Origin: an uncultured Bacilli bacterium
GTDB taxonomy: Bacteria > Bacillota_I > Bacilli_A > RF39 > UBA660
Reading direction: 5' to 3'
NCBI GenBank assembly: GCA_934119955.1
Contig: CAKOSZ010000001.1
Coordinates: 46,592 to 110,591, forward strand
DNA length: 64,000 bases
Numbering within the stretch: position 1 is the first letter of the stretch; each line of letters opens with the position of its first letter. The position numbers were made by a program, and so were the translations under genes. Of this stretch, positions 2,911 through 56,615 are shown piece by piece. The notes under the pieces were generated by a model that was given only the letters and a program-made list of their open reading frames with translations, was not told where the DNA came from and ran no database searches.

Positions 2911-3629
2911 TAGATATCTAGATTATGATAAACATTTGATACATCATCAATATCTTCTAAGGCTTCAATTAAATTCATTACTTTTTCAGTATCTTCTTCA
3001 TTTAAAGCAATTTTATTTGAAGCAACATAAGTTACTTCACTTCTTAAAAAGTCTTTTATACCACTTTCTTCAAAAACGGCTTTAACATTTAAAAAATTTT
3101 CTGGTTCTGTATAAATAGTATAGGTATCATCACAATCAATTACATCTAAACTATCGGCTGTAATTGCAATATTCATAATTTCATCAAAGTTATCATTTGC
3201 TTCTATTTCAATTACACCAAGGCGTTTAAACATATAACTAACTGAACCATCTGTTCCTAAGTTACCACCTCGTTTAGTAAGAGTTGATCTAACAAGCATG
3301 GCTGTTCTATTTTTATTATCAGTTAAACAATCAATCATAATTGCTATTCCATGAGGTGCATACCCTTCATATCTAATACTTTCAAAATTAACATCACTAT
3401 TAGCACCAACTGCTTTATCAATAGCCTTTTGAATGTTATCTTTTGGCATATTGTTACTTCTTGCTTTTTCAATAACCATTCTAAGACCAGGATTTGTATC
3501 AGGATCTCCATTAGTACCCTTTGCTGCTACTTGAATTTCTTTGGATATTTTTTGAAATATTTTTCCTCTTTCTGCATCTATTAAACCTTTTTTACGATGA
3601 ATTGTTGCCCATTTAGAATGTCCACTCAT
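2910..3629 (-). CDS. YebC/PmpR family DNA-binding transcriptional regulator
   Basis: MSGHSKWATIHRKKG... is a canonical YebC/TACO1 N-terminus. The six-frame ORF extends 5 codons upstream, but AGGAGG sits 4 nt before the MSGHSKW ATG. Confidence 0.9.
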   Translation of the reverse strand: MSGHSKWATIHRKKGLIDAERGKIFQKISKEIQVAAKGTNGDPDTNPGLRMVIEKARSNNMPKDNIQKAIDKAVGANSDVNFESIRYEGYAPHGIAIMIDCLTDNKNRTAMLVRSTLTKRGGNLGTDGSVSYMFKRLGVIEIEANDNFDEIMNIAITADSLDVIDCDDTYTIYTEPENFLNVKAVFEESGIKDFLRSEVTYVASNKIALNEEDTEKVMNLIEALEDIDDVSNVYHNLDI

Positions 3630-3678
3630 AAATCCTCCTTTCAAACTTCTTTATTTTAACAAATTTTTTCTTATTAGT

Positions 3679-4908
3679 CTAGTTATTTTTTAACTCTTCT
3701 TCTATGCGCATTAATTGATTATATTTACAAATTCTATCTGTTCTTGACATAGAACCAGTTTTAATTTGACCAAGATTCAAGCCAACTGCTAAATCAGCAA
3801 TAGTAGTATCTTCGGTTTCTCCACTTCTATGAGAAATTACAGTATTATAATTATTCTTTTTAGCAAGGGCAATTGTTCTTAAAGTTTCCGTGATTGTTCC
3901 TATTTGATTAACTTTTAATAAAATTGCATTTCCTGCATGGTTATCAATTCCTTTTTGTAAATATTCTATATTAGTTACAAATAAATCATCACCTACTAAT
4001 TGAATTTTATCTCCTAGTCTTTCGGTTACTAATCTAAATCCTTCCCAGTCATTTTCATCTACTGGATCTTCAATTGAAATAATTGGATAAGTATTAATTA
4101 ATTCTTCATAATAGTCTATTAATTCTTGGGTTGTTAATTTCTTGTTTTCTCCTTTTAGATAATAGATACCATCTTCATAGAATTCACTGGCAGCAACATC
4201 AATTGCCATATTAACGTCAACTCCTGGGGTGTATCCTGCAAGTTTAATTGCTTCCATAATAAGTTCAAAACCCTCTTTATTAGTTTTTAAATTAGGAGCA
4301 AATCCTCCTTCATCTCCAACACTTGTAACATAACCTTTATCTTTTAAAACTTTCTTTAAATTATGAAATACTTCTGATCCTATTCTTACTCTTTCTTTTA
4401 TAGTATCAGCAGTTGGAATAATCATATATTCTTGGAAATCCAAGTTATTATCAGCATGAGCTCCTCCATTTATAATATTCATCATAGGACGTGGCATTGT
4501 AGTACCAGATCCAACATATTTATAAAGTGGCATTTTTTTCTCATTAGCTGCCGCTTTTAAACAGGCCATAGAAACACCTAAAATAGCATTTGCCCCGAAA
4601 TTAGATTTTGTTTTAGTTCCATCAAGTTCAATCATCATATCATCTATTTTTTCTTGATCAAAAACATCCATTCCAACAACTAAATTTCTAAGTTCATTAT
4701 TTACATGACTAACGGCTTTTAAAACTCCTTTTCCAAGGTAACGACTACCACCATCACGAAGTTCTAAGGCTTCTCTTTCCCCAGTTGATGCTCCACTTGG
4801 AACACATGCTCTTCCCATTACTCCACTTTCAAGAATTACATCAACTTCAACAGTTGGATTTCCTCTTGAATCCAAAATTTCTCTTCCTATTACATTTTTA
4901 ATTTTCAT
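3679..4908 (-). CDS. eno: Enolase (phosphopyruvate hydratase)
   Basis: N-terminal [30 protein letters not shown], and C-terminal [17 protein letters not shown] motifs. Confidence 0.95.
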
Positions 4909-7893: not shown

Positions 7894-8562
7894 ATGATAT
7901 ATGAAAATGATAAATTTATTGTTTATTATAATAAATGTGATATTAGATATTTAAAAAAATTACTAAACATTTTAAATCAACGTATACCTAGTATTTTAAA
8001 TTTTTTCAAAATTAATTTTAATAGAAAAATAATAATTAAATTATATGATAACATAGATGAATACAAAAATAATATTACAAATTCTTTTAAAAATGCCTTT
8101 ATAAATGGAGAATATAATCAAGAAAAAAAATTTCAATATTGGATGATTGCAAATACAGAAGATGGAAATATTAATATGCAATCACTTGACTTAATAAGGC
8201 AACTTAATGATTATACTAATTACACAGAAGAAGAATTTTGTTATAATGCAGCACATGAATTTACTCATATTTGCCAACAAGAAATAAATTCAAATAGTCC
8301 AGGATGGTTTTGGGAAGTTCTTGCAACAAATTTAGGTAATCCAGAATGTCAGCATGAAGCAACAGAACCATTTACACTAGAAGATTTAAATAATAATTTT
8401 GATAAAATTGATGGATATGGAATTGCTTATAAAATTGGAAAATATTTATTTAAAAATTACGACAATGATTTTATTTTACAATTAGCACATGATAATTCTA
8501 AATTAGAAACAGTCATAAATGATATTATTAATAAACTAAATAATTCTATAACAAAGAAATGA
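7894..8562 (+). CDS. Hypothetical protein with HExxH motif (possible zinc metallopeptidase-like)
   Basis: AAHEFTHICQQE motif and no other recognisable domain. Extended -10 (TGtTATAAT, 7860-7868) upstream. The ORF could start at TTG 7876, but GAAGTGA RBS favours ATG 7894. Confidence 0.35.
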   Translation: MIYENDKFIVYYNKCDIRYLKKLLNILNQRIPSILNFFKINFNRKIIIKLYDNIDEYKNNITNSFKNAFINGEYNQEKKFQYWMIANTEDGNINMQSLDLIRQLNDYTNYTEEEFCYNAAHEFTHICQQEINSNSPGWFWEVLATNLGNPECQHEATEPFTLEDLNNNFDKIDGYGIAYKIGKYLFKNYDNDFILQLAHDNSKLETVINDIINKLNNSITKK

Positions 8563-8709
8563 TTTTCAATTTTTAGGTAATACTAAATCAAGTAATTATT
8601 TATTTTACATAGATTCAGTTTCATTTGAAACTGATTTTTTTTTAGATCAAAAAAGATAGCAGTAAATCACTACTATCTAAAAAACTAACATTTAAAACAT
8701 TTTTTAATT

Positions 8710-9831
8710 TTAATCTTCTTTATATTCAGTTAATTTAACCTTGGTTGTTCTTTCCTTACCATCTCTCAAATAAGTTAAAGTAATTTCATCACCAGCATTA
8801 TATTTATATAACTCATATCTTAAATAAGCCATGTTATCAACTTTTTCATTATTAATTTTAGTAACAACATCACCTTTTTGTAAATCTGATTTACTTGCTC
8901 CACTATTTTTAGAGATTTCAACAACTACAACCCCAGTTGTAACATTATCTTTTAGCATTATTCCATTTCTGTATAGAGAATAAGTATCACTTGCATTTAT
9001 CATAGAAATACCAAGCATTGGTCTTGTAATTGCCTTACCACTTTCTAAGGACTCAATATGACTCATTGCATATTCAATAGGAATAGCAAATCCCATATTT
9101 TCAACTTCGGTTTGAACTAATTTTAAAGAAATAATTCCTATTACTTCTCCACTTGCATTTACAAGTGGTCCCCCACTATTACCTGGGTTTACAGCAGCAT
9201 TTGTTTGTAATACTTTCATAACCCAATCATTTGTTCCTGATAAACTAACAGTTACTAATCTATCTTTTCCCGATAAAATACCATCAGTTACAGTTCCTCT
9301 ATATTCATATCCAAGCGGAGAACCAATTGTAAAGACAGTATCTCCTAATTTAGATTTTTCACTTGTTCCAATAACTGCTGTATCAATTACATCACTTTTA
9401 TTAATTCTAATAACAGCAAGGTCTAAATACTCATCACTTCCAAGCACTACACCTTCAATTTCCTTATCATCACTTCTTATTAAAACAACCTTTTCAGCAC
9501 CTGATATTACATGATGATTAGTCATTACATATCCATATTTATCATCTGTTTTATACACAAAACCAGAACCTGTTGATGATATAGTATTCTTTTGATAGTT
9601 TTGAATCATCATAACTGCATCATAAACTTTTTCAACACTTGCTGATAATGATCCTTCATTAACAACAACTGTTTTACTACATGCTCTACATGTACTTGTA
9701 CCACTACTATTAGTACCTGATACACTACTACTAAATGTTGTATTAATAGCAATAAAATACATTACTAAGCCTCCTAGTACAAAAGCAACAAATAAATAAA
9801 TTACCAAATTAATTCTATTTTTATCTTTCAT
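8710..9831 (-). CDS. HtrA/DegP family trypsin-like serine protease with PDZ domain, membrane-anchored
   Basis: N-terminal TM helix. Catalytic triad context TNHHVISGA, DLAVIRI, GNSGGPLVN, and a C-terminal PDZ-like segment. Confidence 0.85.
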   Translation of the reverse strand: MKDKNRINLVIYLFVAFVLGGLVMYFIAINTTFSSSVSGTNSSGTSTCRACSKTVVVNEGSLSASVEKVYDAVMMIQNYQKNTISSTGSGFVYKTDDKYGYVMTNHHVISGAEKVVLIRSDDKEIEGVVLGSDEYLDLAVIRINKSDVIDTAVIGTSEKSKLGDTVFTIGSPLGYEYRGTVTDGILSGKDRLVTVSLSGTNDWVMKVLQTNAAVNPGNSGGPLVNASGEVIGIISLKLVQTEVENMGFAIPIEYAMSHIESLESGKAITRPMLGISMINASDTYSLYRNGIMLKDNVTTGVVVVEISKNSGASKSDLQKGDVVTKINNEKVDNMAYLRYELYKYNAGDEITLTYLRDGKERTTKVKLTEYKED

Positions 9832-9841
9832 ATTTTCACCT

Positions 9842-10768
9842 CTACATATCTTTTATTTCATTATAATTAGTGGGAAATCCCATTCTATCTAATACTTTAT
9901 CAATATTAATATGGCTTATATTTAATTCTAAATTCTTTAAATTGTGATTTATTTCTTCAATCAAATTACTAAACTCATTATGAGATAACATCTGTTTCAT
10001 AATAATAATTAAAGCAAACAAATCATTTTTACCATAGATATAATCATCATCCATGATAGGTATTTTTAATTCTTTATGATATTTTGTATCATTTACTTTT
10101 CTTTGCGTTTTATTTTCAAACACAATATCTTCATGAGCACACAAATTTCTATAATTAGATAAAATTGTTAAATAATTACCTAAAACATCTATATCTAAAT
10201 TATAAATTTCAGCAATTGCAAGTTGATCTTCTTTCTTTAAAATTGAATATAACTCTCCAACTATTCCAAAAGATAAGACCTTAACCAGTACCCACAAAGG
10301 AATATAACCATAATTAGTTACATAGTGCATAGTTGCTGAATGCTGAGTTGCATTTATATTAATTTGCCTTTTCATTTTCTTTAAGATGTCATTAACTTGT
10401 TTAGATTTTTCACGGTTAGTTGTAAAGTTTTTAGGTGTTAAATAATCTTTCTCTCTATAACCATATTTTAAAGATAACTGATAACTAATAATAGATTTAA
10501 TATTGTTTTCAATTACTAAAATATTTTTAAATATTATATTTCTAAATGTTCTATCAAATAGAAACAAACTATAAAGTTCTAGAAAATTTGTTCCTTCTAT
10601 ATAAGTTCTATCAGCACTACTTTTCATAAATAAATGTCTATATCCATTTAAAAAGAAATAATTCTCACGAAATAAAACTTCCTTTGCATATTCTATATCA
10701 TCAATCACTAACCCTTTATTTTTTAAAATCTCAATTTGTTCATTTAAGGTTTTAAATTCCTTTTTCAT
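9842..10768 (-). CDS. Abi family protein (Abi_2 domain, AbiD/AbiF-like abortive infection protein, HEPN-type)
   Basis: N-terminus KTLNEQIEILKNKGLVIDDIEYAKEVLFRENYFFLNGYRHLF matches the conserved Abi_2 start. YRNLCAHED supplies an Rx4H HEPN-like motif. Confidence 0.8.
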   Translation of the reverse strand: MKKEFKTLNEQIEILKNKGLVIDDIEYAKEVLFRENYFFLNGYRHLFMKSSADRTYIEGTNFLELYSLFLFDRTFRNIIFKNILVIENNIKSIISYQLSLKYGYREKDYLTPKNFTTNREKSKQVNDILKKMKRQININATQHSATMHYVTNYGYIPLWVLVKVLSFGIVGELYSILKKEDQLAIAEIYNLDIDVLGNYLTILSNYRNLCAHEDIVFENKTQRKVNDTKYHKELKIPIMDDDYIYGKNDLFALIIIMKQMLSHNEFSNLIEEINHNLKNLELNISHINIDKVLDRMGFPTNYNEIKDM

Positions 10769-40948: not shown

Positions 40949-42628
40949 CTAATATGTCATTCCTCCCCATTCAACAGCAGTAAATCCTACTCTTTTAAAA
41001 CTTTCTAATTTTTGTTCTTTAATGTTAACTTTTTTATCAACTTTTTTAATATGAATATTAACTCTTAATAAAGAATCAGGTGTTGGTTCGATTATTAATT
41101 TATTATTTAATTCTCTTTCCTCAGTTAATTCAAAGTAAACTAAACTTTGTTTATTATTTTCTAAAATTGGTAACCAATACATAATAAATTCATTTTTTTC
41201 TTTATCATTTAAACCAATTAAAGACATTTTTTCTTCTAAGAAATTAATTGCATTTTCCTTAGTTACATAGAATCCTTCGTTAAATGATACTTCATGATAT
41301 CTAACTTCGTCCCAGTACAAGGCATAATAATATTTGTTATTATTATCTAATAAATCTCCATTAGGTTTTGCTGTTACAACCCATTCTTTATCATATTTAG
41401 GATAAGTTGTAGTTAAATACTCAGGATGAGCAAATCTTACTTTAACCGTAGTAGTTGTTGTTGGATATAAATATAAAACCGGTTTAGCACGTCCACCCAT
41501 AGCTTCTTTAATAGGATATGTAACTATTTCACTTCCAGTATAACAATATTCCATACCATAATTATCTCCAACCTTGTTTTGATAATAAATAACTAAATAT
41601 AATCCTTCCTTTTTATCAGGTTCATTTAATTTATCTAAATCATCTCTTGAATAATAACGAGATGAATATATATCATAATTATAATTATCACTCCAAGAAA
41701 CTATTTCTTTTAAAGAACCATCACTTAAAGACTCAACAACTAATTTGTCATCTTTAACATAGATTATTTTATCTTCAATTAATTGTTTAAAGTTTTCATA
41801 CTTTTTAGATGTACTAATTAATTTACCATCAGCATTATATTTTTTAACAACATTGTTATTATATACATATAGATTATCTTTAAAGAAAGAATATTTTTCG
41901 TCCCCAATAATTTCATCAGTTGTATTTTCAAATAATAATTTTTTATCATTATTATAAATTTTTTCTATTGTTGAAGTTTCAATTTGAGAACCTAAAATAT
42001 AAAAAGAATTATTATTTAATTTATGGCTATAATATACAATTCCTCCATATTTTACTTTATCTTTTAATTCAATATTTCCATTTTCTACATTTACTAAATA
42101 AACACATCCTGTTTTATTATCAAAATCATAATAAGAAGTGCTAAGATAATTATCATCTACCTTAAATAATTCATAACTATCATAATTAGTATCAAGATTA
42201 GTTTTAACTATTTTTTGAGTTTTAACATTATAAAGTTTTAAACCATTATCATTATACAATATATAAGCAAAATCATATCCTTCAATACCTACTATCTTTG
42301 CATTTTCAGTTTCAGTTTTTAAAGTATAAGCAATAATATTACAAGATTCATTTGCTTCACTACATAAGCGATCATATTGATTCTTATAAACATTCATTGT
42401 ATATTTATAATCCGTTGTATCAACATCTTTGTTATCAACTTGTTCTTTATCATCTCCTTGGTTATTATTATTGTTGTTATTATTAGTACTACTATTTAAC
42501 TCATTATAAACAATAAATCCAACCAAACCTAGTATTATAATTATTAAAATAATGACTAATACTACTAACCCATTTTTCTTTTTTGTACTTTCCATACTCC
42601 TCCTTCTATTTATAACTAAATTATACAA
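40949..42628 (-). CDS. Membrane-anchored hypothetical protein with poly-Asn tract
   Basis: N-terminal TM (LVVLVIILIIIILGLVGFIV), N8-10 run, large extracytoplasmic Y/N/K-rich domain. Confidence 0.5.
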   Translation of the reverse strand: MYNLVINRRRSMESTKKKNGLVVLVIILIIIILGLVGFIVYNELNSSTNNNNNNNNQGDDKEQVDNKDVDTTDYKYTMNVYKNQYDRLCSEANESCNIIAYTLKTETENAKIVGIEGYDFAYILYNDNGLKLYNVKTQKIVKTNLDTNYDSYELFKVDDNYLSTSYYDFDNKTGCVYLVNVENGNIELKDKVKYGGIVYYSHKLNNNSFYILGSQIETSTIEKIYNNDKKLLFENTTDEIIGDEKYSFFKDNLYVYNNNVVKKYNADGKLISTSKKYENFKQLIEDKIIYVKDDKLVVESLSDGSLKEIVSWSDNYNYDIYSSRYYSRDDLDKLNEPDKKEGLYLVIYYQNKVGDNYGMEYCYTGSEIVTYPIKEAMGGRAKPVLYLYPTTTTTVKVRFAHPEYLTTTYPKYDKEWVVTAKPNGDLLDNNNKYYYALYWDEVRYHEVSFNEGFYVTKENAINFLEEKMSLIGLNDKEKNEFIMYWLPILENNKQSLVYFELTEERELNNKLIIEPTPDSLLRVNIHIKKVDKKVNIKEQKLESFKRVGFTAVEWGGMTY

Positions 42629-43764: not shown

Positions 43765-45018
43765 TTATTTCTTTTTAGTATTTTCCTTTATTTTATCATA
43801 TATTCTTTGATTAATAACTAAATCAAATTCTCCAATATATTCTATTATCGTAGAATTAAAACTTAATCTTGGAGCATTTAAAGTTTGATATTTACCTAAG
43901 TCTTCTCGTCCAAAGTCACCTACTACTCCATTTAAATTTATATACATAAATCCTTCATTTTTATATTTTTTAATAAGTTCCCAAATAAAAACATATCTTG
44001 GATTAAATTTTAAATATTCATCTAAGTAACTATCTATTATTAAATCAACACCATTATTGTGCTTAATTGTAAAACCTGCTCCAATTGTAACATAATCTGG
44101 ATTAGTTCTTGATAACTTAGTAGCATAAATTAATTCATTTTTATAAAAATTTAATCTTTCATCTGATTTCATTTTATCATTTATAATTCTTTGTTTTTCA
44201 GATCCAGTTATACTAAGATCTTGAACAAATGAGGCTAATTCATCATTTTTCATGGCTTCTATATCATATTTTTGCTTCATATTAGTTAAATATTTATCTG
44301 TATTTACATTAATAAAGAATATATCCATAGCATTATTTCTAGAAAAATTATTATACATACCTTGATAATATCTTTTTCTTCTTTTTCTATTTTTAAAACC
44401 TATAAATTTATATAATTCATCTATATTACCAGTTTTATCAATTGAAACTTCTAAACCTGATAAAACACTTTCTTCTATTTTAGTTTTAGCATCTTTACTA
44501 ATATTATTATATAATGTTTTAATATCATAATTTAAATTAACAAAAGCATTTAATCTTGGTTTATAGTTTTCAAAATATTTATTGAAGCCCATATGAATAT
44601 AGTTATTACTTTTTAAAGTATCTAATATTTGATTAATTGTATTACTAAAATAAATAACATTTCCTTTATTATCACGTTCACTACAAATAATAGGTGGGTC
44701 TATTTTAATAAAAGCATAACGTTGTTTTCTTAATAAATTGATAAGTCCCATTGTTACATTTTTAACAAGTTTACTATCTGTATAATCTATTAAAAAGCCA
44801 CGAGGTGCATAGGCATATTTATAATGCAAATAAATAGTTTTATGTAAAAATAAAGTAGCACCTACAAGTTCATTATCTTGAACAAAGCCTATATAAAATG
44901 TATTTAACCCTTCATATCTTGATGTTTCAGCATAAGCAGATGTTTGATAATATGTACTGTATTTATGTTTATAAGCAAAATTGTCAAATTCTTCTTTGGA
45001 TAAAGCAACTATTTTCAT
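43765..45018 (-). CDS. FemAB family peptidoglycan interpeptide-bridge aminoacyltransferase
   Basis: ~417 aa. N-terminal LSKEEFDNFAYKHKYSTYYQTSAYAE...FYIGF...ELVGATLFL parallels FemA/FemX. Confidence 0.65.
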   Translation of the reverse strand: MKIVALSKEEFDNFAYKHKYSTYYQTSAYAETSRYEGLNTFYIGFVQDNELVGATLFLHKTIYLHYKYAYAPRGFLIDYTDSKLVKNVTMGLINLLRKQRYAFIKIDPPIICSERDNKGNVIYFSNTINQILDTLKSNNYIHMGFNKYFENYKPRLNAFVNLNYDIKTLYNNISKDAKTKIEESVLSGLEVSIDKTGNIDELYKFIGFKNRKRRKRYYQGMYNNFSRNNAMDIFFINVNTDKYLTNMKQKYDIEAMKNDELASFVQDLSITGSEKQRIINDKMKSDERLNFYKNELIYATKLSRTNPDYVTIGAGFTIKHNNGVDLIIDSYLDEYLKFNPRYVFIWELIKKYKNEGFMYINLNGVVGDFGREDLGKYQTLNAPRLSFNSTIIEYIGEFDLVINQRIYDKIKENTKKK

Positions 45019-45139
45019 CTTTCCAACACCTTTCTAGATTATTGTACCAATTTTTTACAATAATATCAATAATTAATTAAATTTATATTCTATATTATTA
45101 AATAGTTGTGTTATAATAATAGCATAAAGGTGGTGGCTT

Positions 45140-46468
45140 ATGGAAACATTGGATAGTATCAAAAATGAAGATTTAGAATTAATTGATGATGATAATGTTT
45201 TAGATAATCAAAATGATTTTTTAGAAGAAGAAGAAAATAAAGAAAATAATATGTTTGATACAGTTATTGATGTAATTGATAACGATGATAATCTTGATAA
45301 TGATGACGTTGATTTAATAGAAACCATTAATGATGAAGATAAAAATGAAAATATAGAAAAAGCAAATCAAGATGAAGAAATTGAAACTGATAAACATGTA
45401 GAAGAGGTTAAAGAAATCAAAGAAGAAACAAATCAAAATGAAAATACTGAACCAGAAGAAATCAAAGAAGAAATAAATCAAGATGAAAATATTAAACAAG
45501 AAAGTATTAAAGAAACTAATTCTAACTTAGAAGAAAAAAATTCTATTAAAGATAATCCAAGTTATAAAGTATTACTTGAATACGGTGAAAATATAACTGA
45601 TAAAGAATATATTACTAATCCTGCAATTGGAAGAGATAAAGAAATTCAAGAATTAATTGTTATTCTTTTAACACCTGAAAAATCTGGTATTTTAGTAGGT
45701 AAACCTGGTATTGGTAAAACTGCTATTGTTGAAGGATTAAGTTATAGAATTCAAAATGGTAATGTTCCTGATGCTTTAAAAGATTATACTATTTTAAAAT
45801 TAAGTAGTGCATCTTTAACTGGTATTATTCCTGAAACCCAAGAATTAAGAATTCAACATGTAGTAGATAATTTAAAAAATCTTGATCGAGTTATGGTTTT
45901 TATTGATGAAATTCATACTTTAATAGGAACTGGGGAAAATACCTTAGACTTTGCTAATATCTTTAAACCTGTAATTGATAGAGGTACTATTAAAATAATA
46001 GGTGCTACAACAAGCGATGAATATGATAGGTATATTTTAAGAGATAAAGCCTTTGTTAGACGTTTTCAAAAAGTTGAAGTTGCAGAGCCTACCAGGGAGA
46101 TGAATATTCAAATAATGATGGGAACTTATCCTAAATTTGAAAAGAAAATGGGTTTAAAACTTAAATATACTGATTTTATTAAGAAAAATATCATGAGTTT
46201 TATAACTGATATAACCAGTGAATTTAAAAGAACTTATGAAACTTCTGTAAGATACCCAGATATTTCTTTAACAATTTTACAACAAGCATTTTCATATGCC
46301 TCATTTGATAATAGAAAAGAAGTTGATATAAGAGATGTTAGAAAAGCCATTTTAAATACTAAATTAATCTATCCTGATGTAATCAAAAAAGAACTTATAA
46401 GATTTAATGAAGTATTTAAAGATATTTATCTAATGGAAACTAAACAAATATTAAAGGATGAAGTATGA
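45140..46468 (+). CDS. Diverged Clp/Hsp100 D1-type AAA+ ATPase domain protein with acidic repeat-containing N-terminal extension
   Basis: IGRDKEIQELIVILL...GKPGIGKTAIVEGLSYRIQNGNVP...VFIDEIHTLIG...IGATTSDEYDRYILRDKAFVRRFQKVEVAEPT aligns motif-for-motif with the ClpC D1 domain. It lacks Clp_N repeats and D2, and the sensor region is degenerate. Confidence 0.6.
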   Translation: METLDSIKNEDLELIDDDNVLDNQNDFLEEEENKENNMFDTVIDVIDNDDNLDNDDVDLIETINDEDKNENIEKANQDEEIETDKHVEEVKEIKEETNQNENTEPEEIKEEINQDENIKQESIKETNSNLEEKNSIKDNPSYKVLLEYGENITDKEYITNPAIGRDKEIQELIVILLTPEKSGILVGKPGIGKTAIVEGLSYRIQNGNVPDALKDYTILKLSSASLTGIIPETQELRIQHVVDNLKNLDRVMVFIDEIHTLIGTGENTLDFANIFKPVIDRGTIKIIGATTSDEYDRYILRDKAFVRRFQKVEVAEPTREMNIQIMMGTYPKFEKKMGLKLKYTDFIKKNIMSFITDITSEFKRTYETSVRYPDISLTILQQAFSYASFDNRKEVDIRDVRKAILNTKLIYPDVIKKELIRFNEVFKDIYLMETKQILKDEV

Positions 46469-46839
46469 AAAAAATAATTTATTATTTAAGAATAATTTTA
46501 TTTGTTCTTTATTTAATAACCATGTTTTTATTAATAGATAAATTATATAAAACTAGTTTCTTATCAATTATTTATTATATATTTAATATAATTTATTCTA
46601 TTTTTATAATAATAAGTATTATTTCAAAGAAAAAAATATTTAAAGAAATAATTTCTTATAATTTATTAAATATTGGTATTTATCTTTATACTTTTATGCT
46701 TTATAAAATAATTAAAGATAATAGTTTCTTAGATATTATAAACAACAAAGTTTATTTTAATAATAACTATATAATGATGTCTATTCTATTATTTGGTTTA
46801 ACAATTTATACTTTAATTTTAAACAATGAAAAAAACTGA
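46465..46839 (+). CDS. Small polytopic membrane protein, translationally coupled to the Clp-D1-like gene
   Basis: ATGA overlap. About 4 TM helices. Confidence 0.45.
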   Translation: MKKIIYYLRIILFVLYLITMFLLIDKLYKTSFLSIIYYIFNIIYSIFIIISIISKKKIFKEIISYNLLNIGIYLYTFMLYKIIKDNSFLDIINNKVYFNNNYIMMSILLFGLTIYTLILNNEKN

Positions 46840-46841
46840 TA

Positions 46842-47630
46842 TTATTTACCAGTTTTTTTTCTTTCTTCTAATAATTTACTTTGATAAGATTCATAAACAG
46901 TTAATTTATTTTTAATACTTTGAGAATTAAAGTTTTCTAATATATTATAACTATTTAAACCATTTAAACGAATTTCAATTTCTAAGGCTTTGGAATTTTT
47001 TAATAAATTTTGTTGAAAATTTAATTTATGAAAACATAATTCTATTCTTTTATTAACATCTCTTATTAAATTTTCTTTTTCTAAACTTGTTAATTCATTT
47101 ATTTTATTTTCCAATGTATCCATGATAATTACTTGAATTTTATCTAAATAATTAAATGAACTAATAGATAAATCATGAAATTCTTGAAAACCTTCTAATT
47201 CTTTTTTATAATTTTCTAAAAAAGAAGGATTTATATTTTTAGAACTTTTATTTCTAAGAAAAAATTCATCTGTTAAATTATAACTTCTAACTTTAATTAT
47301 ATTTTTATAACTTTGAATATTATCTTCAAGAGATAACATACTATCAAATAAAGAAGCATAGATATCCATTATTTCAATAGATTGAGTATGTGGTAATTTA
47401 ACCTTAATATTTTGAATTATTAAATTCAATAAACTATTCATATAATTATTCTTTAAATAATTAACAGCAGAATAATTTAAATATAAATCAACTAATTCCT
47501 TCAAATTCAAAACAGATAACTGATTCTCAATTTCTTCTAAAAGAATATCAAACTTTCTTTTATAAATATTTTCATATTCATCTTGTTTATTATAATACTT
47601 TATATACGTTTCTACTAAATAAATATTCAT
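46842..47630 (-). CDS. Hypothetical protein downstream of surface locus B
   Basis: 262 aa, helical/charged, no motif. Confidence 0.45.
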   Translation of the reverse strand: MNIYLVETYIKYYNKQDEYENIYKRKFDILLEEIENQLSVLNLKELVDLYLNYSAVNYLKNNYMNSLLNLIIQNIKVKLPHTQSIEIMDIYASLFDSMLSLEDNIQSYKNIIKVRSYNLTDEFFLRNKSSKNINPSFLENYKKELEGFQEFHDLSISSFNYLDKIQVIIMDTLENKINELTSLEKENLIRDVNKRIELCFHKLNFQQNLLKNSKALEIEIRLNGLNSYNILENFNSQSIKNKLTVYESYQSKLLEERKKTGK

Positions 47631-47682: not shown

Positions 47683-49539
47683 TTATTTAAGAGCAATAGT
47701 AAATGGATTACTTTTAGTTCCATCTCCACCTGTTATAACGATATTTGATTTTAGATATATTGATGGACGAGCAGCAATAGTAGTGGAAAGTTTGATGAAG
47801 CTAACATCACCGGTTTTTTCAGTGTAATAAACACGAGAAGAGCTAGAAGGTGTTATTAACCACATACTACTTGAACCAGAATAACCACCTCCTTGTTGAC
47901 TGGCAAACATTTCTCCGTATCTTGGTAGCCCTACATAACCAGTATTCCAAATACTTGTTGTTTTAACACAATCTTTTGTTATTTCAGTGGTATTATTTGT
48001 ATTACATAAAGAATTTTTATAACTTGTACCTCTAGATATTTCTTTTATATAATATGTTCCTTTGTCTAACATATTTTTTTGTGCTAAACTATTATACCAA
48101 GTATTATTTAAATAATAATCCCAGTAATCATCACTATCTCCATTTCCATATGGTGTACTTGTACTAAACTTTTTAGTTAAAGTAGTTGTACCATTTTTTA
48201 TATAATCATTTTTATTTAATTTAACTTTCTCGTCTTCAATACTTACTATTCTATACAATTCTTTGGTTGTATTATTACCATCTTCGTCAAATATTACATA
48301 CTCACCTATTGTTCTTGTATTTAATAAAGTTGTATTTGCTGTTGCCGGTTCCTTATCTCCTAAAATTGTATATGGATCATCTTTGGTTCCCGAACCACCT
48401 AAAAGTTGGATATTTGATTTTAGATTTATTGACGGGCGAACACCATAGGTACTGGAAGGACTGCCGACGCCGTTGCTATCATTACCGCTGTTAGTAACAG
48501 CCCAAACATAAGAAGAGCTACAAGGATTTAATAACCACCAATCATAGCCTATATTTAAATAACCACCTGGGTATCCTATGTTTCCTATGTTTTTATAACT
48601 TAAATAATATTCATGCCTATTTAATAGCCCTACTGATGTATTCTTACCAATTGTAGAATTGTTTATTAAAGGTGTTATATTCCATGTACTATCTTCAACT
48701 ATTATATTTTGATAATTATATAAAGTATCTAAAAAGTCTTCATTTAACCATTGATACATGTATGATCCAGTATATGTTGTATCATCTTTTTTAGATATAT
48801 CATAAAAATTTACATCACTTCCGTAAGAAATAGTTGTAATTACATCATCTGTTATCATTTTCATAGTTCCATCAGAATTAATGGCTGTTATTCGCCAAAG
48901 TTTGCCACTATACCAAACATAATTAAAGTTTATACAAGTACTTGTTCCTGATATATAAGTTATACCATCTTCTTCTACTTTGGTTTTACATGAACCTGTT
49001 GGATTATTAACACTTGTTGCAATTGCATCTTTAACTGGTACTCCTAAGGTTTCATTTAGTTTTAATTCTATTCCTTGTTCAAGGGGAATTGGATAACCTG
49101 TTAAGCCTCCTTGGGTACCTAGTTTAATTGTTATGTCATTTTCTCCTATGTTTGTAAATGTAAAACTAAATGATTTAGATGAAGTCATATCACCTTCAAC
49201 TATATTATTTGTAAATGTTTCTGTTGATGTTACATTGAATAAAGATATACCTGACACTACTTCATAGTACATTTTATATGCTATTTGATTTGTTAATTCT
49301 GTTGTTAAATTAACAGTTAAAGTAATACTGCTTCCTTTTGGAATTGTAAAAGTATTATTCTCTTGATTTACTACTGTTGTTGTTATATTAATGGATGCTG
49401 TTTTTAAAACTATAACACTATTTTTTATAACTGATACTTCATAATATGCATACGATGAATACATTCCTATTGATAATACACACATTAATACTAAAAATAC
49501 TATAATTTTTTTATTTAAATTAATTTCTTTATCTAACAT
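47683..49539 (-). CDS. Large secreted/surface-anchored protein (paralog B) with two C-terminal repeat modules
   Basis: Signal-anchor. Modules ...RPSINLKSNIQLLGGSGTKDDPYTI and ...RPSIYLKSNIVITGGDGTKSNPFTI, related to the C-terminus of the 28234 gene. Confidence 0.5.
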   Translation of the reverse strand: MLDKEINLNKKIIVFLVLMCVLSIGMYSSYAYYEVSVIKNSVIVLKTASINITTTVVNQENNTFTIPKGSSITLTVNLTTELTNQIAYKMYYEVVSGISLFNVTSTETFTNNIVEGDMTSSKSFSFTFTNIGENDITIKLGTQGGLTGYPIPLEQGIELKLNETLGVPVKDAIATSVNNPTGSCKTKVEEDGITYISGTSTCINFNYVWYSGKLWRITAINSDGTMKMITDDVITTISYGSDVNFYDISKKDDTTYTGSYMYQWLNEDFLDTLYNYQNIIVEDSTWNITPLINNSTIGKNTSVGLLNRHEYYLSYKNIGNIGYPGGYLNIGYDWWLLNPCSSSYVWAVTNSGNDSNGVGSPSSTYGVRPSINLKSNIQLLGGSGTKDDPYTILGDKEPATANTTLLNTRTIGEYVIFDEDGNNTTKELYRIVSIEDEKVKLNKNDYIKNGTTTLTKKFSTSTPYGNGDSDDYWDYYLNNTWYNSLAQKNMLDKGTYYIKEISRGTSYKNSLCNTNNTTEITKDCVKTTSIWNTGYVGLPRYGEMFASQQGGGYSGSSSMWLITPSSSSRVYYTEKTGDVSFIKLSTTIAARPSIYLKSNIVITGGDGTKSNPFTIALK

Positions 49540-49889: not shown

Positions 49890-52181
49890 TTAAGTTATTT
49901 TTATTTTCTTTTTGTTATTTAAAATACTATCTATTACTAAGTTATCTATTTTATTCTCTAATATAGTATTAATATTTCTAGCACCATATAAATTATAATT
50001 AGATAGTTCTATTATTTTATTTACAAAGTTTTTATCTATATTAATAGTTATATCTTGTTGTTTTAATCTTTTTCTTATTTCTAATATATTTTTATTTATA
50101 ATATCTTTTATATTATCTCTTGTTAATTCATTAAATTGAATTATATGAGTTATTCTATTAATAAATTCTATTTTTAAAACATTTTTTAGTTTATCAAGTA
50201 TTACTTTATCTTGACTTTGATTAAATCCAATTGTATTTATATTAGAAGTAATATTACTTGTAAAAATAATAATTGCATGTTTAAAATATATTTTATCATT
50301 TTTACTATCTGTAATAAAACCTTCATCTAAAATTTGTAAAAATAAATCAATAAAAGCATTGCTAGATTTTTCTATTTCATCTATTAGTATTACTGAAAAA
50401 GGATTATTTTTAACACTTTCTAAAATACTATTATGAGAATCATATCCAACATATCCAGGTGGTGAACCTATTAATTTACTAATAGCATGACTTTCTTTAT
50501 ATTCACTTGCATCTATCCTAATTAATTCCATTTTCATATACTTGGCATATTGTTTTACAAGTTCAGTCTTTCCTATTCCAGATTTACCCGTAAATAAAAA
50601 TGATATTGGTTTTTGATTATTCTTTAAACCTAGTTTTATTTTCTTAGTTTCATTTACTAATATACTAATAGCATTATCTTGACCAATTATTTCTTTTTTT
50701 AAATTATTTTCTAAATTCTTTAATTCTTTTAAATTACTTAAATTATTTTCATAAACTGGTATATTAACTTTATTTTTAATTACTTCATTTATATCATTTA
50801 TACTTACTTCTTTTTTAGAATAATTAGTTTTATCAAGTTCTAAATTATTTAATTTATTCTCTAAAACTAATTCTTGTTTTTTATAATAAGAAGCATTTAA
50901 AAAATCTTGTCTTAATAAATATTTATTTTTTTCTTGTTTAATAAATTCTAATTCTTGTTCCATGTTTTCTTGTTTTTTCGTATTTTTATCTTTTTTAAGT
51001 TTTCTTAATATACAAACTTCATCTAAAATATCAATTGATTTATCTGGATTTTTTCTATTTAAAATATATTTATCACATAAATTAATAATTGTATCAATTG
51101 CCTGATCTTTAATAATTACTTGATGAAATCTTTCATAGATTGGTTTTAATTTTAATAATATTTCTTTGGTTTCTTCCTTTGAAGGTTCTTTTATTAAAAT
51201 TGTTTGAAAACGCCTTGCTAAGGCTTTATCTTTTTCAATTGAGTTTTTATATTCTATAATAGTAGTTGCTCCAATTAATTTTAATTTACCACGTGCAAGA
51301 GCTGGTTTAAATATATTAGATGCATCTATTGCTCCTTCGGCTCCCCCTGCTCCTACTAAGGAATGAACTTCATCTATAAAAAGAATAATATCAGGATTAT
51401 TTTCTAATTCTTTAATTATTTTATTAACTTTTTCTTCGAATTCACCTCTGTATTTAGTACCAGCAACTAAACTAGCCAGTGATAAAGACATGATTTTTTT
51501 ATTTAATAATTGGCTTGGAACACTTTTGTTACTTATTTTTAAAGCCAGTCCTTCTACAACTGCTGTTTTTCCTACCCCTGCTTCACCTATTAATAAAGGA
51601 TTATTCTTTGTTCTTCTTAAAAGTATTTCTATCATTCTATTAATTTCTTTATCTCTTCCTATTACAGGATCTATTTTATTCTCACTTGCAAGTTTTACTA
51701 AATCTGTTGCAAATTCATTTATTAATAACTTTTTATTACTTTTGTATTTAGAATTATCATCTTTATTTAAAAACTCTAAATACATATCATCTATATCAAT
51801 TTCTAAATTATTTAAAATTCTAATTGCAACCCCTTCTCCTTCATCTAAAAGAGATAAAAATAAATCATTTATATTAACACTTTCCCTACCTTCTTCTCTT
51901 GTATCAAGAATTGCATTTTCAATTATTCTTTTAAATAAAGGAGTATAAATAAAATAAGAATTTAAACTATTACCATAACCAATTATATTTAATAATTCTT
52001 CTTTAAAATTATCATAGAAAATATTATAATCATTTAATTTCTTAGTTAATTCTAAATCTTTATTGCTTAAAATACTTAACATTAAATGTTCTGTTCCAAC
52101 AAATGGGTGTTTTAACTTCTGCATTTCAATTTTAGCATTTTTTAAGACTTTGGTACAAACTTCATCAAATTTTTGAAACAT
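49890..52181 (-). CDS. ATP-dependent Clp protease ATP-binding subunit (ClpC/ClpE-like, two AAA+ domains)
   Basis: Clp_N repeats, D1 (VIGRDKEINRMIEILLRRTKNNPLLIGEAGVGKTAVVEGLA...LFIDEVHSLVGAGGAEGAIDASNIFKPALARG), D2 (FLFTGKSGIGKTELVK...ILIDEIEK). 763 aa. Confidence 0.85.
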   Translation of the reverse strand: MFQKFDEVCTKVLKNAKIEMQKLKHPFVGTEHLMLSILSNKDLELTKKLNDYNIFYDNFKEELLNIIGYGNSLNSYFIYTPLFKRIIENAILDTREEGRESVNINDLFLSLLDEGEGVAIRILNNLEIDIDDMYLEFLNKDDNSKYKSNKKLLINEFATDLVKLASENKIDPVIGRDKEINRMIEILLRRTKNNPLLIGEAGVGKTAVVEGLALKISNKSVPSQLLNKKIMSLSLASLVAGTKYRGEFEEKVNKIIKELENNPDIILFIDEVHSLVGAGGAEGAIDASNIFKPALARGKLKLIGATTIIEYKNSIEKDKALARRFQTILIKEPSKEETKEILLKLKPIYERFHQVIIKDQAIDTIINLCDKYILNRKNPDKSIDILDEVCILRKLKKDKNTKKQENMEQELEFIKQEKNKYLLRQDFLNASYYKKQELVLENKLNNLELDKTNYSKKEVSINDINEVIKNKVNIPVYENNLSNLKELKNLENNLKKEIIGQDNAISILVNETKKIKLGLKNNQKPISFLFTGKSGIGKTELVKQYAKYMKMELIRIDASEYKESHAISKLIGSPPGYVGYDSHNSILESVKNNPFSVILIDEIEKSSNAFIDLFLQILDEGFITDSKNDKIYFKHAIIIFTSNITSNINTIGFNQSQDKVILDKLKNVLKIEFINRITHIIQFNELTRDNIKDIINKNILEIRKRLKQQDITINIDKNFVNKIIELSNYNLYGARNINTILENKIDNLVIDSILNNKKKIKIT

Positions 52182-52817: not shown

Positions 52818-54086
52818 CTATAATTCTTTTAAGCAAAAACTTGCATAAACAGGAATATATCTAATGTTTTTCTTTTTAGCAAAGTTATCTTCGGTTAATC
52901 TAATTGGATTTGCTACACTAAACTTTGAAGTAAATAGAGATAAGGCTTTGGCTTTGGTTAAATTCATATTAAGTATTTCTATTGGTATTATTTCACCCAT
53001 TCTATTTTGAATTATAAAGTTTATTTCTGATTTACCATCTGATTGATAATAATATAAACTATAACCCATATTTATTAAAGTATTACTAACATTATTTTCT
53101 ATTAAAGTTCTTCTAATATCATTATCTGTTAAGAACTTCATTTTATTTAAATGTAACATAGTATAAAGTATTCCAACATCATTTGGATATAGTTTAAAAC
53201 TTTCTATATCTTTATAACTACTTAAAGGACTTTTAATATCATTTAATTTAAAACTTCTATGAATTAAACTATTTACACCTAGAAATTGAATACTTGCTTC
53301 ATAGTCTTTACTACGACTTCCTTTTTTAATATTTCCGTATTGGAATTTTTTATTCTCTTTTAATAATTGAAAAGGAATACTATTTAATACTTCATTAGTT
53401 CTTGGTATATCTATTAAATTTCTAGCATATATCGTTTCTGATTTAATTAAATCAATTATTTTTTGTTTTATACTTTCTATTATTAAATAATCTTTTTTAT
53501 TAATATAAGAATCTACTACCTCAGGATATCCCCCAGTTATTAAAAAATCATTATATAGGTCAAGTGCCATTTGATGAAAAGGCATTGGTATATTTTTAGT
53601 ATATGATTCTTTGATAAAATCAACCAATTGCTTTTTACCAGTATTTACCAAAAATTCTTCAAAATCCATTGGATACATTGCTTTAAAATGTAATTCTTCT
53701 CCTTTAAATTTAGTTAAATATTCTTTTTTAGATGTTATCATGATTATATGATATTGATTATTTTCATTACCAAATAATTTAATTGCTTTAACTATATAAT
53801 TATTTTCAACATTATCTAAAATAATTAAAGTATCTTGTTTAAAAATAGTTTCTCCTGATAATACTGATAATTTTAAAATAATTTTATCTGGTATTTTTTC
53901 TCTTTTTAAAATATCTAATAAATCTAAATTATTAGTTGTATTGAAGTAAACAATATTTTTATAACATTTTTTTCCAAAGTCTATGACAGAATAAGTTTTA
54001 CCTACTTGTTTAGAACCATATACAAGTAATGGTTTATAAGCATCTTTTTTCCATCTTAATAAGTCATTATAAATCTTTCGTTCCAT
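52818..54086 (-). CDS. AAA family ATPase (AAA_14 plus DUF4143 type)
   Basis: N-terminus RKIYNDLLRWKKDAYKPLLVYGSKQVGKTYSV is the stereotyped start of this widespread ATPase family. Confidence 0.75.
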   Translation of the reverse strand: MERKIYNDLLRWKKDAYKPLLVYGSKQVGKTYSVIDFGKKCYKNIVYFNTTNNLDLLDILKREKIPDKIILKLSVLSGETIFKQDTLIILDNVENNYIVKAIKLFGNENNQYHIIMITSKKEYLTKFKGEELHFKAMYPMDFEEFLVNTGKKQLVDFIKESYTKNIPMPFHQMALDLYNDFLITGGYPEVVDSYINKKDYLIIESIKQKIIDLIKSETIYARNLIDIPRTNEVLNSIPFQLLKENKKFQYGNIKKGSRSKDYEASIQFLGVNSLIHRSFKLNDIKSPLSSYKDIESFKLYPNDVGILYTMLHLNKMKFLTDNDIRRTLIENNVSNTLINMGYSLYYYQSDGKSEINFIIQNRMGEIIPIEILNMNLTKAKALSLFTSKFSVANPIRLTEDNFAKKKNIRYIPVYASFCLKEL

Positions 54087-54984: not shown

Positions 54985-56364
54985 TTAGTATTCACAGTTA
55001 CCAGGAGTTCTTGGATAAGGAATTACATCACGAATATTTTCAACACCAGTTAGATATATTAATAATCTTTCAAATCCCATTCCAAAACCTGAATGAGGAC
55101 AACCTCCAAATTTTCTTAAATTTAAATACCATTCCATTGATGAAGCATCCATTTTTAATTCTTCCATACGTCTAACTAATTTATCATAGTCTTCTTCTCT
55201 TTGAGAACCACCCATTAATTCTCCTGCACCTGGTACTTCTAAATCAACCGCTGCAACAGTTTCTTGATCAGGATTTAATTTCATATAAAAGGCTTTAATA
55301 TCTTTTGGCCAATCAGTTATAAATACAGGTCCATTAAAGTATTCTGTTATATATTTTTCATGTTCCTTGGCAATATCCTCACCATATTCTGGTTTAAATT
55401 CCCAATCTACCTTGGCCTCTTTTAAAATAGAAATTACATCATGATGAGTTATTCTTGTAAAGTGACTAGTTAATAGTTTATTTAATTTTTCAAGTAAACC
55501 TTTTTCAACAAAACTATCAAAGAAATTCATTTCGTCTTTACAATTATCAAGGACATATTTAACAACATATTTAAGCATATCTTCCATGATATCCATATCA
55601 CCTGCAAGATCACAAAAAGCAATTTCAGGTTCAATCATCCAAAATTCACTTGCATGAGTTTTGGTATTAGAATTCTCTGCTCTAAATGTTGGACCAAAAG
55701 TATAAACTTTTTTGTAAGCAAGAGCAAATGTTTCAGCTTCAAGTTGACCTGATACGGTAAGAGCTGTTGTTTTACCAAAGAAATCTTTTGAATAATCAAC
55801 AGTTCCTGATTTAGCAACTCTATTTAAATCAAGAGTTGTAACTTGAAACATTTGACCTGCACCTTCACAATCACTTGCTGTAATTAATGGAGCATGAAAA
55901 TATACATATCCTTTTTCTTGAAAATATTTATGAATTGCATAAGCAGCCACACTTCTAACACGAAAAACTGCATTAAACAAATTAGTTCTAGGTCTTAAAT
56001 AGGCTTGCTCTCTTAAAAATTCTCTTGTATGTCTTTTAGGTTGAATTGGATATTCATCAGGACACTCACCAATTACTTTAATATTATTAACTTTAATTTC
56101 AAAGTCTTGTCCACTTCCTTGGGATTTAATAACCACTCCTTCAACTTCTAAACTAGATCCAACTTTTATCTTAGTAATATCTTCAAAATCACTTAAATTA
56201 TTATCATAAACAAGTTGAATAGTTTTAAAACAAGTTCCATCACTAAAATCAATAAAACCAAATTCTTTTTGTTTACGATGATTTCTAACCCAACCATCTA
56301 TTACTACTTTCTCTCCCATATACTTTTCTAAATCCATTACGATATCTTTTACATCTATTTTCAT
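54985..56364 (-). CDS. asnS: Asparagine--tRNA ligase
   Basis: N-terminal OB-fold (VVIDGWVRNHRKQK), class II motifs (FRAE, GGSQRE, GFGMGFERL). Confidence 0.95.
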   Translation of the reverse strand: MKIDVKDIVMDLEKYMGEKVVIDGWVRNHRKQKEFGFIDFSDGTCFKTIQLVYDNNLSDFEDITKIKVGSSLEVEGVVIKSQGSGQDFEIKVNNIKVIGECPDEYPIQPKRHTREFLREQAYLRPRTNLFNAVFRVRSVAAYAIHKYFQEKGYVYFHAPLITASDCEGAGQMFQVTTLDLNRVAKSGTVDYSKDFFGKTTALTVSGQLEAETFALAYKKVYTFGPTFRAENSNTKTHASEFWMIEPEIAFCDLAGDMDIMEDMLKYVVKYVLDNCKDEMNFFDSFVEKGLLEKLNKLLTSHFTRITHHDVISILKEAKVDWEFKPEYGEDIAKEHEKYITEYFNGPVFITDWPKDIKAFYMKLNPDQETVAAVDLEVPGAGELMGGSQREEDYDKLVRRMEELKMDASSMEWYLNLRKFGGCPHSGFGMGFERLLIYLTGVENIRDVIPYPRTPGNCEY

Positions 56365-56615
56365 ATATCCTCCTTTAAAATAAAAGCACTGATTAAAAGA
56401 GGCGACTAATCACGGTACCACTCTTCTTATCAGTGCTTGATATCTCTTCTTGATAACGGTTATAAACCGATATTTTCTACTAAATTCAAAAATATACTCC
56501 ACAGTGTTATTCTTATATTCTTCCTGTTAATTTTCACCAACCATTAACTCTCTAAATGTAACTAAATATAATACTTCTCTGTATCATCGCTTTGATTAGT
56601 TATATTATATAACCT
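56365..56615 (-). promoter_or_regulatory. T-box riboswitch leader of asnS
   Basis: Minus-strand RNA has AGAGAGUUAAUGGUUGGUGAAAA stem I start, T-box AGAGUGGUACCGUGAUUAG, and terminator inverted repeat AAGCACUGAU...AUCAGUGCUUUU followed by a U-run. Confidence 0.7.

Follow-up and report, generated by a model that had tools for sequence, protein, structure and literature searches.

Clp/Hsp100 motors are known as threading machines with two rings (or of the ClpX type), and the D1 ring has normally been studied within the tandem. Here we describe a gene pair that codes for a D1-type AAA+ protein standing alone and for a small membrane protein. The pair lies in a stretch of 64,000 nucleotides (the window) from an uncultured Bacilli bacterium of the RF39 lineage (GenBank assembly GCA_934119955.1, contig CAKOSZ010000001.1, positions 46,592 to 110,591); positions below are those of the window unless a related locus is named. 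The ATPase gene (45140-46468, + strand, TGA stop included) codes for 442 residues and is identified by its open reading frame (ORF), a match to PF00004 (AAA) and more than 100 homologous clusters. The gene for the membrane partner, a predicted four-helix protein of 124 residues, follows at 46465..46839 (+). This gene pair is real and strongly conserved in uncultured gut Bacilli, and the ATPase family stands outside any curated family.

The described systems closest to this ATPase are the D1 rings of class-I Clp/Hsp100 proteins (ClpC, ClpA, ClpB, ClpE). They have the same fold, composed of a large and a small subdomain, and share their motifs with the ATPase; the lid of ClpA, like that of the ATPase, has no M-domain insertion. 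Class-I Clp proteins also contain an N-domain, a D2 ring and a tyrosine in pore loop 1, together with an M-domain in ClpB and ClpC and a docking tripeptide in the ClpP-binding types, whereas the ATPase has none of these. Its sequence suggests that the ATPase descended from, and works most like, the D1 ring of class-I Clp ATPases. Since it lacks most of the features that define this class, annotation as ClpC, ClpA or ClpB is unwarranted. The architecture of the ATPase recurs in uncurated D1-only proteins of spore-forming Firmicutes (about 430-590 residues; P0152, P0160, P0188, where P denotes protein cluster representatives, as L below denotes related contigs or loci compared with the window). 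These chromosomally encoded proteins share the lid, are 40-46% identical to the ATPase over nearly the whole core and are monophyletic with the window family (98.5%). They differ by an N-terminal region of about 210 residues that, read from the sequences, looks folded, by the absence of an acidic tail, and by mostly keeping the tyrosine. No partner with four transmembrane helices (4-TM) lies beside the genes of the four such relatives that we examined.

Two more distant systems offer analogies. Torsins are eukaryotic single-ring, Clp-related AAA+ proteins that are activated by the membrane partners LAP1 and LULL1; they are D2-like and lack an arginine finger of their own, which the partner supplies. 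Like the ATPase, they consist of a single Clp-related module that appears to work with a membrane protein of its own, and their substrate interface is non-canonical. This likeness is an analogy only: the ATPase is of the D1 type and its arginine pair is its own and invariant. The 124-residue partner is a bare four-helix bundle that hardly extends into the cytoplasm and so cannot contribute an AAA-like domain. The D1 ring of p97/Cdc48 belongs to the classical AAA clade, has pore loops without an aromatic residue and serves mainly in assembly and regulation, always fused to a translocating D2 ring. The ring predicted for the ATPase is likewise non-aromatic but stands alone, and p97 is a functional analogue, not a relative. 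Finally, an extra class of Clp ATPases, ClpI, has recently been defined bioinformatically in Actinomycetota (Jiang and Schmitz 2023, PMC10149685). ClpI proteins are described as variable at the N-terminus and, in some sub-classes, devoid of the ClpP-binding motif; they are double-ringed with an M-domain and intact unfolding motifs. On this description ClpI has two rings and intact motifs, whereas the ATPase has one ring and an altered pore loop. Full-text searches of the literature on stand-alone or D1-only Clp proteins returned no description of a D1-only family that lacks the tyrosine, ClpI being the nearest. Such a family also has no specific Pfam, NCBIfam, PADLOC or PHROG model, and names from cluster look-up were uninformative.

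The D1 module and its lineage

Residues 141-442 of the ATPase form a complete Clp D1 module, which AlphaFold2 models as an AAA+ large subdomain followed by a helical lid, with predicted local distance difference test (pLDDT) scores of mostly 85-92. An earlier sequence-only reading of this DNA had aligned the protein, through its Walker A, Walker B, IGATT and RRFQ motifs, with the D1 domain of the ClpC encoded 3.4 kb away. BLASTP confirms this alignment: 180 residues of the D1 large subdomain match at 43% identity (E = 7e-43). The best Foldseek matches of the model are the D1 domains of S. aureus and B. subtilis ClpC, M. tuberculosis ClpC1 and ClpB, and E. coli ClpA (E about 1e-18). Since these alignments cover about 270-297 columns of D1, the whole of D1 is present, lid included. 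PF00004 is the sole Pfam match above cut-off (42.1 bits against a cut-off of 21.2, residues 184-309). As had been claimed, the Clp_N domain, D2 and the ClpP-docking loop are absent: the Pfam scan of the 442-residue protein detects no Clp_N (PF02861), AAA_2, AAA_lid_9 (M-domain) or ClpB_D2-small, and the docking tripeptide [ILV]G[FL] occurs nowhere in it. Clp_N, M-domain, D2 and D2-small are all detected by Pfam in the ClpC of the window. The chain of the ATPase stops after the D1 lid and hence contains one of the two AAA+ modules that characterize class-I Clp/Hsp100 proteins. No score reaches the curated cut-off of the NCBIfam equivalogs for ClpB (176.9 bits against 1232), ClpA (167.5 against 993), TssH/ClpV (166.7 against 885), ClpG or ClpK. 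These results support the view that this is a genuine stand-alone D1-type AAA+ protein in a non-standard Clp arrangement.

The motifs of the ATP site are in place. Walker A (GKPGIGKT, residues 187-194; 45698..45721, +) is invariant in an alignment of 19 homologues, and Walker B (VMVFIDEIH, residues 251-259; 45890..45916, +) was located by alignment with ClpC and the same homologues. The segment from IGATT in the sensor-1 region (residues 287-291) to RRFQ (residues 307-310), with the arginine-finger pair R307/R308, spans 45998..46069 (+). The D1 catalytic residues K193, D256/E257, T290/T291 and R307/R308 are invariant among the 19 homologues. The D1 lid (residues 316-442; 46085..46465, +) is delimited by confident AlphaFold2 helices and by Foldseek and is free of an M-domain insertion; its helices run uninterrupted over residues 319-440, and it contains RYPDISL and the conserved C-terminus YLMETKQILKDEV. 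The sequence-only reading had also described the replacement of a conserved GAGGAEGAxDA sensor by GTGENTLDFAN. This replacement stands (residues 263-273; 45926..45958, +; ClpC has GAGGAEGAIDASN there), but the element is a shortened loop after Walker B and not a sensor, and sensor-1 in IGATT is intact.

The pore-loop-1 position, identified from alignments to ClpC and ClpB, is occupied by SLTGIIPETQEL (residues 225-236; 45812..45847, +) as opposed to SLVAGTKYRGEFEE in ClpC. The loop of the ATPase is two residues shorter, non-aromatic and without tyrosine, with KYRGEFE, whose Lys-Tyr-Arg grips the substrate, replaced by IIPETQEL. T227, G228, P231, T233, E235 and L236 of this loop are invariant in the 19 homologues. 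The tyrosine is missing from pore loop 1 of every representative with at least 54% identity, the conserved loop of these members being TGxxPxTxEL in the window's group, and most D1-only representatives at about 40% identity retain it. Since the tyrosine is replaced in the whole sub-clade, the earlier description of the protein as unfoldase-like is doubtful. The pore-loop change itself had gone unnoticed in the sequence-only reading.

A homologue search of a set of 5.8 billion proteins returned many clusters of 350-450 residues with 63-94% identity, from NCBI, ENA and Logan assemblies and on contigs of up to 490 kb. The ATPase is intact in more than 100 sequence clusters, which disposes of the concern that the gene is a frameshifted or truncated pseudogene of a full-length Clp ATPase. 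Its orthologues belong to the same D1-only length class, share the C-terminus ...KQILKDE[VT] and have a separate intact clpC in the same loci. Among the 19 homologues, roughly 170 alignment columns do not vary between about residue 149 and the C-terminal end. In L001, L004 and L007, respectively, identity to the window is 95, 82 and 80% for the ATPase core, 69, 61 and 65% for ClpC, 86, 70 and 76% for a neighbouring FemAB protein, and 75, 54 and 50% for the membrane partner. The ATPase core therefore shows the highest conservation in this neighbourhood; it is under strong purifying selection and more tightly constrained than ClpC. The few labelled family members are named 'AAA family ATPase [Erysipelotrichaceae bacterium]' or 'ATP-dependent Clp protease ATP-binding subunit [Bacilli bacterium]' in the source databases; the latter label is misleading.

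With the ATPase core as query, an exhaustive HMMER search through 1.84 billion cluster representatives yielded three tiers of relatives. The first comprises about 30 representatives with 54-74% identity, all without the pore-loop tyrosine (consensus LLG[TS][ML]P-x-GE[ST][KR][VL]Q, with the loop given above in the window's group); in these the core occurs alone, behind 100-730 residues of low-complexity sequence, or before 150-680 residues of it. The second comprises about 100 representatives (36-46% identity, 430-590 residues) in which the core is C-terminal to the N-terminal region of about 210 residues and the tyrosine is mostly retained (SGCxY[VR]GxFEE). The four of these that we examined are chromosomal, and at least two adjoin spore genes: GerA and a coat protein (P0188) and SpoVA (P0406). 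The third tier consists of ordinary double-ring Clp proteins. Two further proteins show unusual Clp architectures: P0154 (769 residues) has two consecutive D1-like modules with KYRGEFE in both, and P0153 (880 residues) has two D1-like modules followed by an apparent D2.

A neighbour-joining tree of 51 sequences, calculated from a short alignment of 201 D1 columns with 200 bootstraps, recovers the tyrosine-less clade at 99.5% and all D1-only proteins (31 sequences) at 98.5%. The ClpC proteins of the window, L004 and L007 form a separate clade at 100%, and a sister relationship between this clade and the D1-only proteins is recovered at 19%. The ATPase gene is therefore no recent duplicate of the neighbouring clpC, and the earlier suggestion that it derived from clpC by duplication does not hold in a local or recent sense. 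On this neighbour-joining tree and its short alignment, the ATPase belongs to an older D1-only Clp/Hsp100 lineage in which the tyrosine would have disappeared a single time.

When one genome per GTDB species was scanned with a profile of the lid alone, only 17 genomes contained family members, with lid identities of 43-85%. All 17 are metagenome-assembled genomes (MAGs) labelled Bacilli, Erysipelotrichaceae, Mollicutes, 'Mycoplasma sp.', Firmicutes CAG:884 or 'Muribaculaceae'; the last label looks like mis-binning or mislabelling. Several MAG names point to rabbit, rumen or human-gut samples. The remaining matches to the lid profile are ClpA and ClpB lids (24-34% identity over the full lid) and a few short partial matches. 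A metagenome scan added 24 further loci. No family member was found in IMG/VR with the lid profile, which matched only Clp lids of at most 33% identity. Matches to C. difficile 'plasmid' records, the best full-length ones on plasmids, proved to be the ordinary ctsR-mcsA-mcsB-clpC operon and are irrelevant. A phage search with a tyrosine-containing D1-only relative returned only generic Clp-like jumbo-phage genes that cover about half of the query.

The acidic tail and the membrane partner

Residues 1-140 of the ATPase (45140..45559, +) form an acidic, disordered N-terminal tail of hypervariable length. The D/E/N-rich N-terminus noted earlier is borne out in this region: aspartate and glutamate make up 38% and asparagine 16% of the tail, its net charge is -41, and AlphaFold2 assigns pLDDT values below 50 to residues 1-133, that is, predicts disorder. 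Both length and sequence of the tail are hypervariable in the alignment of 19 homologues. The tail contains the short acidic/hydrophobic motifs DLELIDDD (residues 11-18) and NNMFDTVIDV (residues 36-45), and a motif like the latter or DNYLNxN[IV] is found in 80 of 120 homologue tails. According to Tandem Repeats Finder, a tandem repeat at 45411..45514 (+) has a period of 45 bp (15 residues; 2.0-2.2 copies, 83-89% matches), with the units EIKEETNQNENTEPE and EIKEEINQDENIKQE. The period of 33 bp given by the sequence-only reading was wrong, and its 11 residues are the conserved part of the unit.

The extension is N-terminal in the window protein and either C- or N-terminal, with up to about 700 residues, in proteins of the P0122 and P0125 types. 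Long low-complexity extensions of 100-730 residues carry an acidic/aromatic motif at the distal tip, whichever terminus is extended (P0122-P0143; L010 7473-10370; L127; L147). At the C-end this motif reads [FY]xDDF[YF][DE]x, for example FFDDFYDE, in 11 of the 13 representatives with a C-terminal extension; at the N-end it reads NRF[IF]FSD[DS][FY]Y[ED], for example NRFIFSDDFYE. The protein of L147 begins with ...QYFDDFFD and that of L127 finishes with ...NDDFFEE; short forms of the family frequently terminate in EENVDLN[DE]. In two loci (L012 8435-9688, L013 8438-9607) a tail-less ATPase is directly followed by a membrane protein of about 400 residues, with GlmS next. This membrane protein has a Zn-ribbon, a disordered acidic region with a net charge of -30 and a lysine-rich stretch preceding its transmembrane helices, and the acidic arm appears to have been transferred here from the ATPase to its membrane neighbour. 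To judge from the sequences, the overall pattern of these tails would be that of a flexible arm bearing docking peptides.

The stop codon of the ATPase gene overlaps the start codon of the partner gene (GAA GTA TGA / ATG AAA, an ATGA overlap read in the sequence), and both ORFs and this overlap agree with the earlier calls. The partner is modelled as four long helices (residues 2-26, 32-53, 63-85 and 95-121; mean pLDDT 84.7), with a basic SKKK loop after helix 2. Hydropathy and this loop are compatible with a four-pass membrane protein that would have both ends in the cytoplasm. Neither Pfam, NCBIfam, PADLOC nor PHROGs gave any match to the 124-residue sequence, and Foldseek found no match to its model in the PDB with E below 3. 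The partner homologues (n = 114) all have 83-157 residues and none has a Pfam domain.

A search for orthologous two-gene pairs, as had been proposed, found the pair conserved in L001-L008, L011, L122-L126 and L129. The 4-nt overlap is present in all loci of the window's own group (L001-L007, L122-L125). In L008, L011, L126 and L129 a 4-TM protein of 124-134 residues starts at -14 to +3 nt 3' of the ATPase gene. The association with a partner persists down to about 58% identity of the ATPase core. The ATPase gene is upstream of the partner gene in every locus examined, including both of the two partner homologues that were looked up directly.

Signals and genes around the pair

The window has a G+C content of about 23%. 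A strong Shine-Dalgarno-like sequence, AAAGGTGGTGG, was read at 45126..45136 (+), 3 nt 5' of the ATPase ATG. Further upstream, TGTTATAAT (45109..45117, +), also read in the sequence, is a possible extended -10 promoter element of the ATPase gene; it is missing from the promoter scan list because no -35 hexamer fits.

A gene for a FemAB-family peptidyltransferase (43765..45018, -; PF02388, E = 3e-48) is divergent from the pair. It adjoins the pair in the window, L001-L007, L122 and L123, and in another orientation in L015, so that its presence is frequent, not universal. On the other side of the pair, the gene for the full-length ClpC (49890..52181, -; Clp_N, D1, lid, D2, D2-small) is a neighbour and not the parent of the D1-only gene. 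It is one gene away, separated by an orphan of 238-267 residues, in L001-L005, L007 and L124. This adjacency is limited to some lineages and is lost in L008-L023, L122 and L123, where the ATPase is kept. In L005, an NCBI MAG, clpC was called in two pieces (8398-10695; 693 and 60 residues); the near-identical ENA contig L004 carries it undivided, and the split is probably an assembly or calling artefact. The orphan of the window (262 residues; 46842..47630, -) is convergent with the pair, is separated by 2 nt from the 3' end of the membrane-protein gene and lies downstream of clpC. This protein has no match in Pfam, NCBIfam, the PDB (sequence search), PADLOC or PHROG. It is conserved in L001-L007 and L124, directly downstream of clpC in related loci, is fast-evolving (identity from 58% down to 23%) and could be a ClpC-associated factor. 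Between clpC and this orphan the window contains a gene (47683-49539, -) for a 618-residue protein with an N-terminal hydrophobic segment and DUF6273. Nothing in L001-L007 matches it, and these loci lack a gene at that position; it looks like a lineage-specific insertion.

Other members of the family have different neighbours. The far side of the locus carries EzrA, or PBP2B-DivIC-RsmH, in L122/L123, and a gene for a diacylglycerol-kinase-domain protein is 5' of the pair in L008 and L126. In a distant sub-clade (L019, L021-L023, L143, L145, L148) genes for a LysM protein without signal peptide, a thioredoxin-like lipoprotein with lipobox and CxxC, the ATPase and often a SpoU methylase are arranged with tight spacing. 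Two tyrosine-containing relatives adjoin GlmS, or Mur ligase and Ddl. The recurrent envelope and division neighbours are FemAB, VanY, GlmS, LysM, PBP2B/DivIC/EzrA and the diacylglycerol-kinase-domain protein. Taken as they stand, these neighbours may hint at envelope biogenesis as the process concerned.

Several observations at these loci stand apart from the pair. In one MAG (L009 8484-11741) the gene directly 3' of the ATPase homologue codes for an nSTAND3 NTPase of 1085 residues (E = 1e-37). A 422-residue AAA_14/DUF4143 protein (52818-54086, -) matches the PADLOC candidate defence family PDC-S01 very strongly (E = 1.6e-111) and is 90% conserved in L001-L003. A T-box leader (56395-56596, -; 118 bits against a gathering score of 93) precedes an ORF of 459 residues (54985-56364, -). 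The gene at 40949-42628 (-) codes for a membrane-anchored protein of 559 residues with a run of nine asparagines, a homologue of which is found near the ATPase in L012 (11703-12767). In L001-L003 a gene for Spo0A (3592-4371; Response_reg and Spo0A_C) lies on the upstream side of the FemAB-ATPase block, at a distance of two genes. The lineage therefore descends from, or still belongs to, cell-walled spore-formers, despite its very low G+C content.

A possible role at the membrane

We read the ATPase as an active ring ATPase that acts at the membrane with its partner and not as a ClpP-linked threading unfoldase, and we hold this reading with slightly better than even confidence; what it says on structure and evolution stands on much firmer ground than what it says on function. 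Given its complete ATP site (Walker A, Walker B, sensor-1 and the trans-acting arginine pair), the ATPase would most likely assemble as a ring and hydrolyse ATP. ClpP-coupled or canonical threading unfoldase activity would be unlikely, and its most likely mode would be that of an ATP-driven remodelling or assembly factor. The four-helix, translationally coupled partner would hold the ATPase at the cytoplasmic face of the membrane or direct its action there, membrane tethering being suggested by gene order. The hypervariable acidic tail would act as a flexible arm, either to recruit a client or partner or to regulate the ring, and the process served may be envelope biogenesis or division.

A number of points weigh against this reading. 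We infer ring formation, ATPase activity and partner binding alike from sequence and gene order. The partner is missing in distant sub-clades (L009, L010, L015-L023) and is not essential to the family. In L008, L011, L126 and L129 the partner is present and the tail absent, which means that tail and partner are not strictly coupled. The tail of the window protein and the acidic region of the L012 membrane protein align with 40.4 bits, barely above shuffled sequences (30.5 +/- 3.2, maximum 40.0), and homology between them is not demonstrable beyond composition. SpoU methylase, nSTAND3 NTPase and ABC transporter neighbours do not fit an envelope theme. Finally, non-aromatic loops translocate in some AAA+ rings, which leaves room for unfolding.

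One rival explanation, which we consider rather unlikely, is that the ATPase is a non-canonical single-ring unfoldase or disaggregase which works without ClpP through aliphatic, proline-containing loops and obtains its substrates via the partner (membrane proteins) or the tail. Such an activity would be consistent with the complete ATPase site and with a D1 fold that is that of threading motors. The replacement pore loop is invariant, which suggests a functional contact surface and not decay, and an aliphatic residue (I, M or L) precedes its proline in most members. Yet the whole sub-clade has lost the aromatic residue along with two residues of the pore loop, the second loop is shortened too, and the protein has neither an N-domain nor an M-domain that could take input from substrates or Hsp70. 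The proximity of clpC invites another explanation, in which the ATPase regulates the neighbouring ClpC by co-assembly, by docking, or by delivering or withholding substrates via its tail, as an adaptor or anti-adaptor. The two genes are 3.4 kb apart in the window and one gene apart in the seven loci named above, and their D1 domains are 43% identical. We regard this as improbable, since the adjacency is lost in L008-L023, L122 and L123 with the ATPase retained, and since the genes are convergent and not co-transcribed.

The same proximity and the clear D1 homology could also be taken to mean that the gene arose recently by duplication of the D1 half of the clpC next to it and is possibly decaying. 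The tree speaks against this, as it places the ATPase in the D1-only clade (98.5%) apart from the local ClpC clade (100%). Moreover, the gene is intact and better conserved than ClpC, and its near-equal scores with the ClpB, ClpA and ClpV models (177, 168 and 167 bits) indicate no specific affinity to ClpC, all of which makes a recent duplication very improbable. Even less credible is an anti-phage defence or mobile-element module composed of an AAA+ sensor and a small membrane effector. The pairing of an ATPase with a small transmembrane protein does resemble some defence systems, PADLOC gives a weak match to IetA (24.8 bits), and the PDC-S01 candidate gene is 6 kb away. However, the synteny with housekeeping genes is stable, conservation of the core across species is very high, IMG/VR contains no family member, and the PADLOC and PHROG matches are generic AAA or Clp ones (IetA 24.8 bits, TRIP13 20.3 bits).

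Returning to the reading of a ring that acts at the membrane, we tentatively propose, as a conjecture well short of even confidence, that the tyrosine-less D1-only proteins are a new functional class. They would be non-threading single rings that use ATP to remodel or assemble an envelope or division complex at the membrane, recruited there by the 4-TM anchor and addressed by a swappable acidic tail with terminal docking motifs. They would be more tightly constrained than ClpC and might be essential throughout a lineage of uncultured gut Bacilli.

A natural lone D1 ring with a replaced gripping tyrosine would be a test case for what D1 does without D2 and without the aromatic loop. The shuffling of the acidic tail between N-terminus, C-terminus and neighbouring membrane protein provides handles for a partner search. 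For the abundant uncultured Bacilli of gut and rumen, the pair represents unannotated and apparently important genes.

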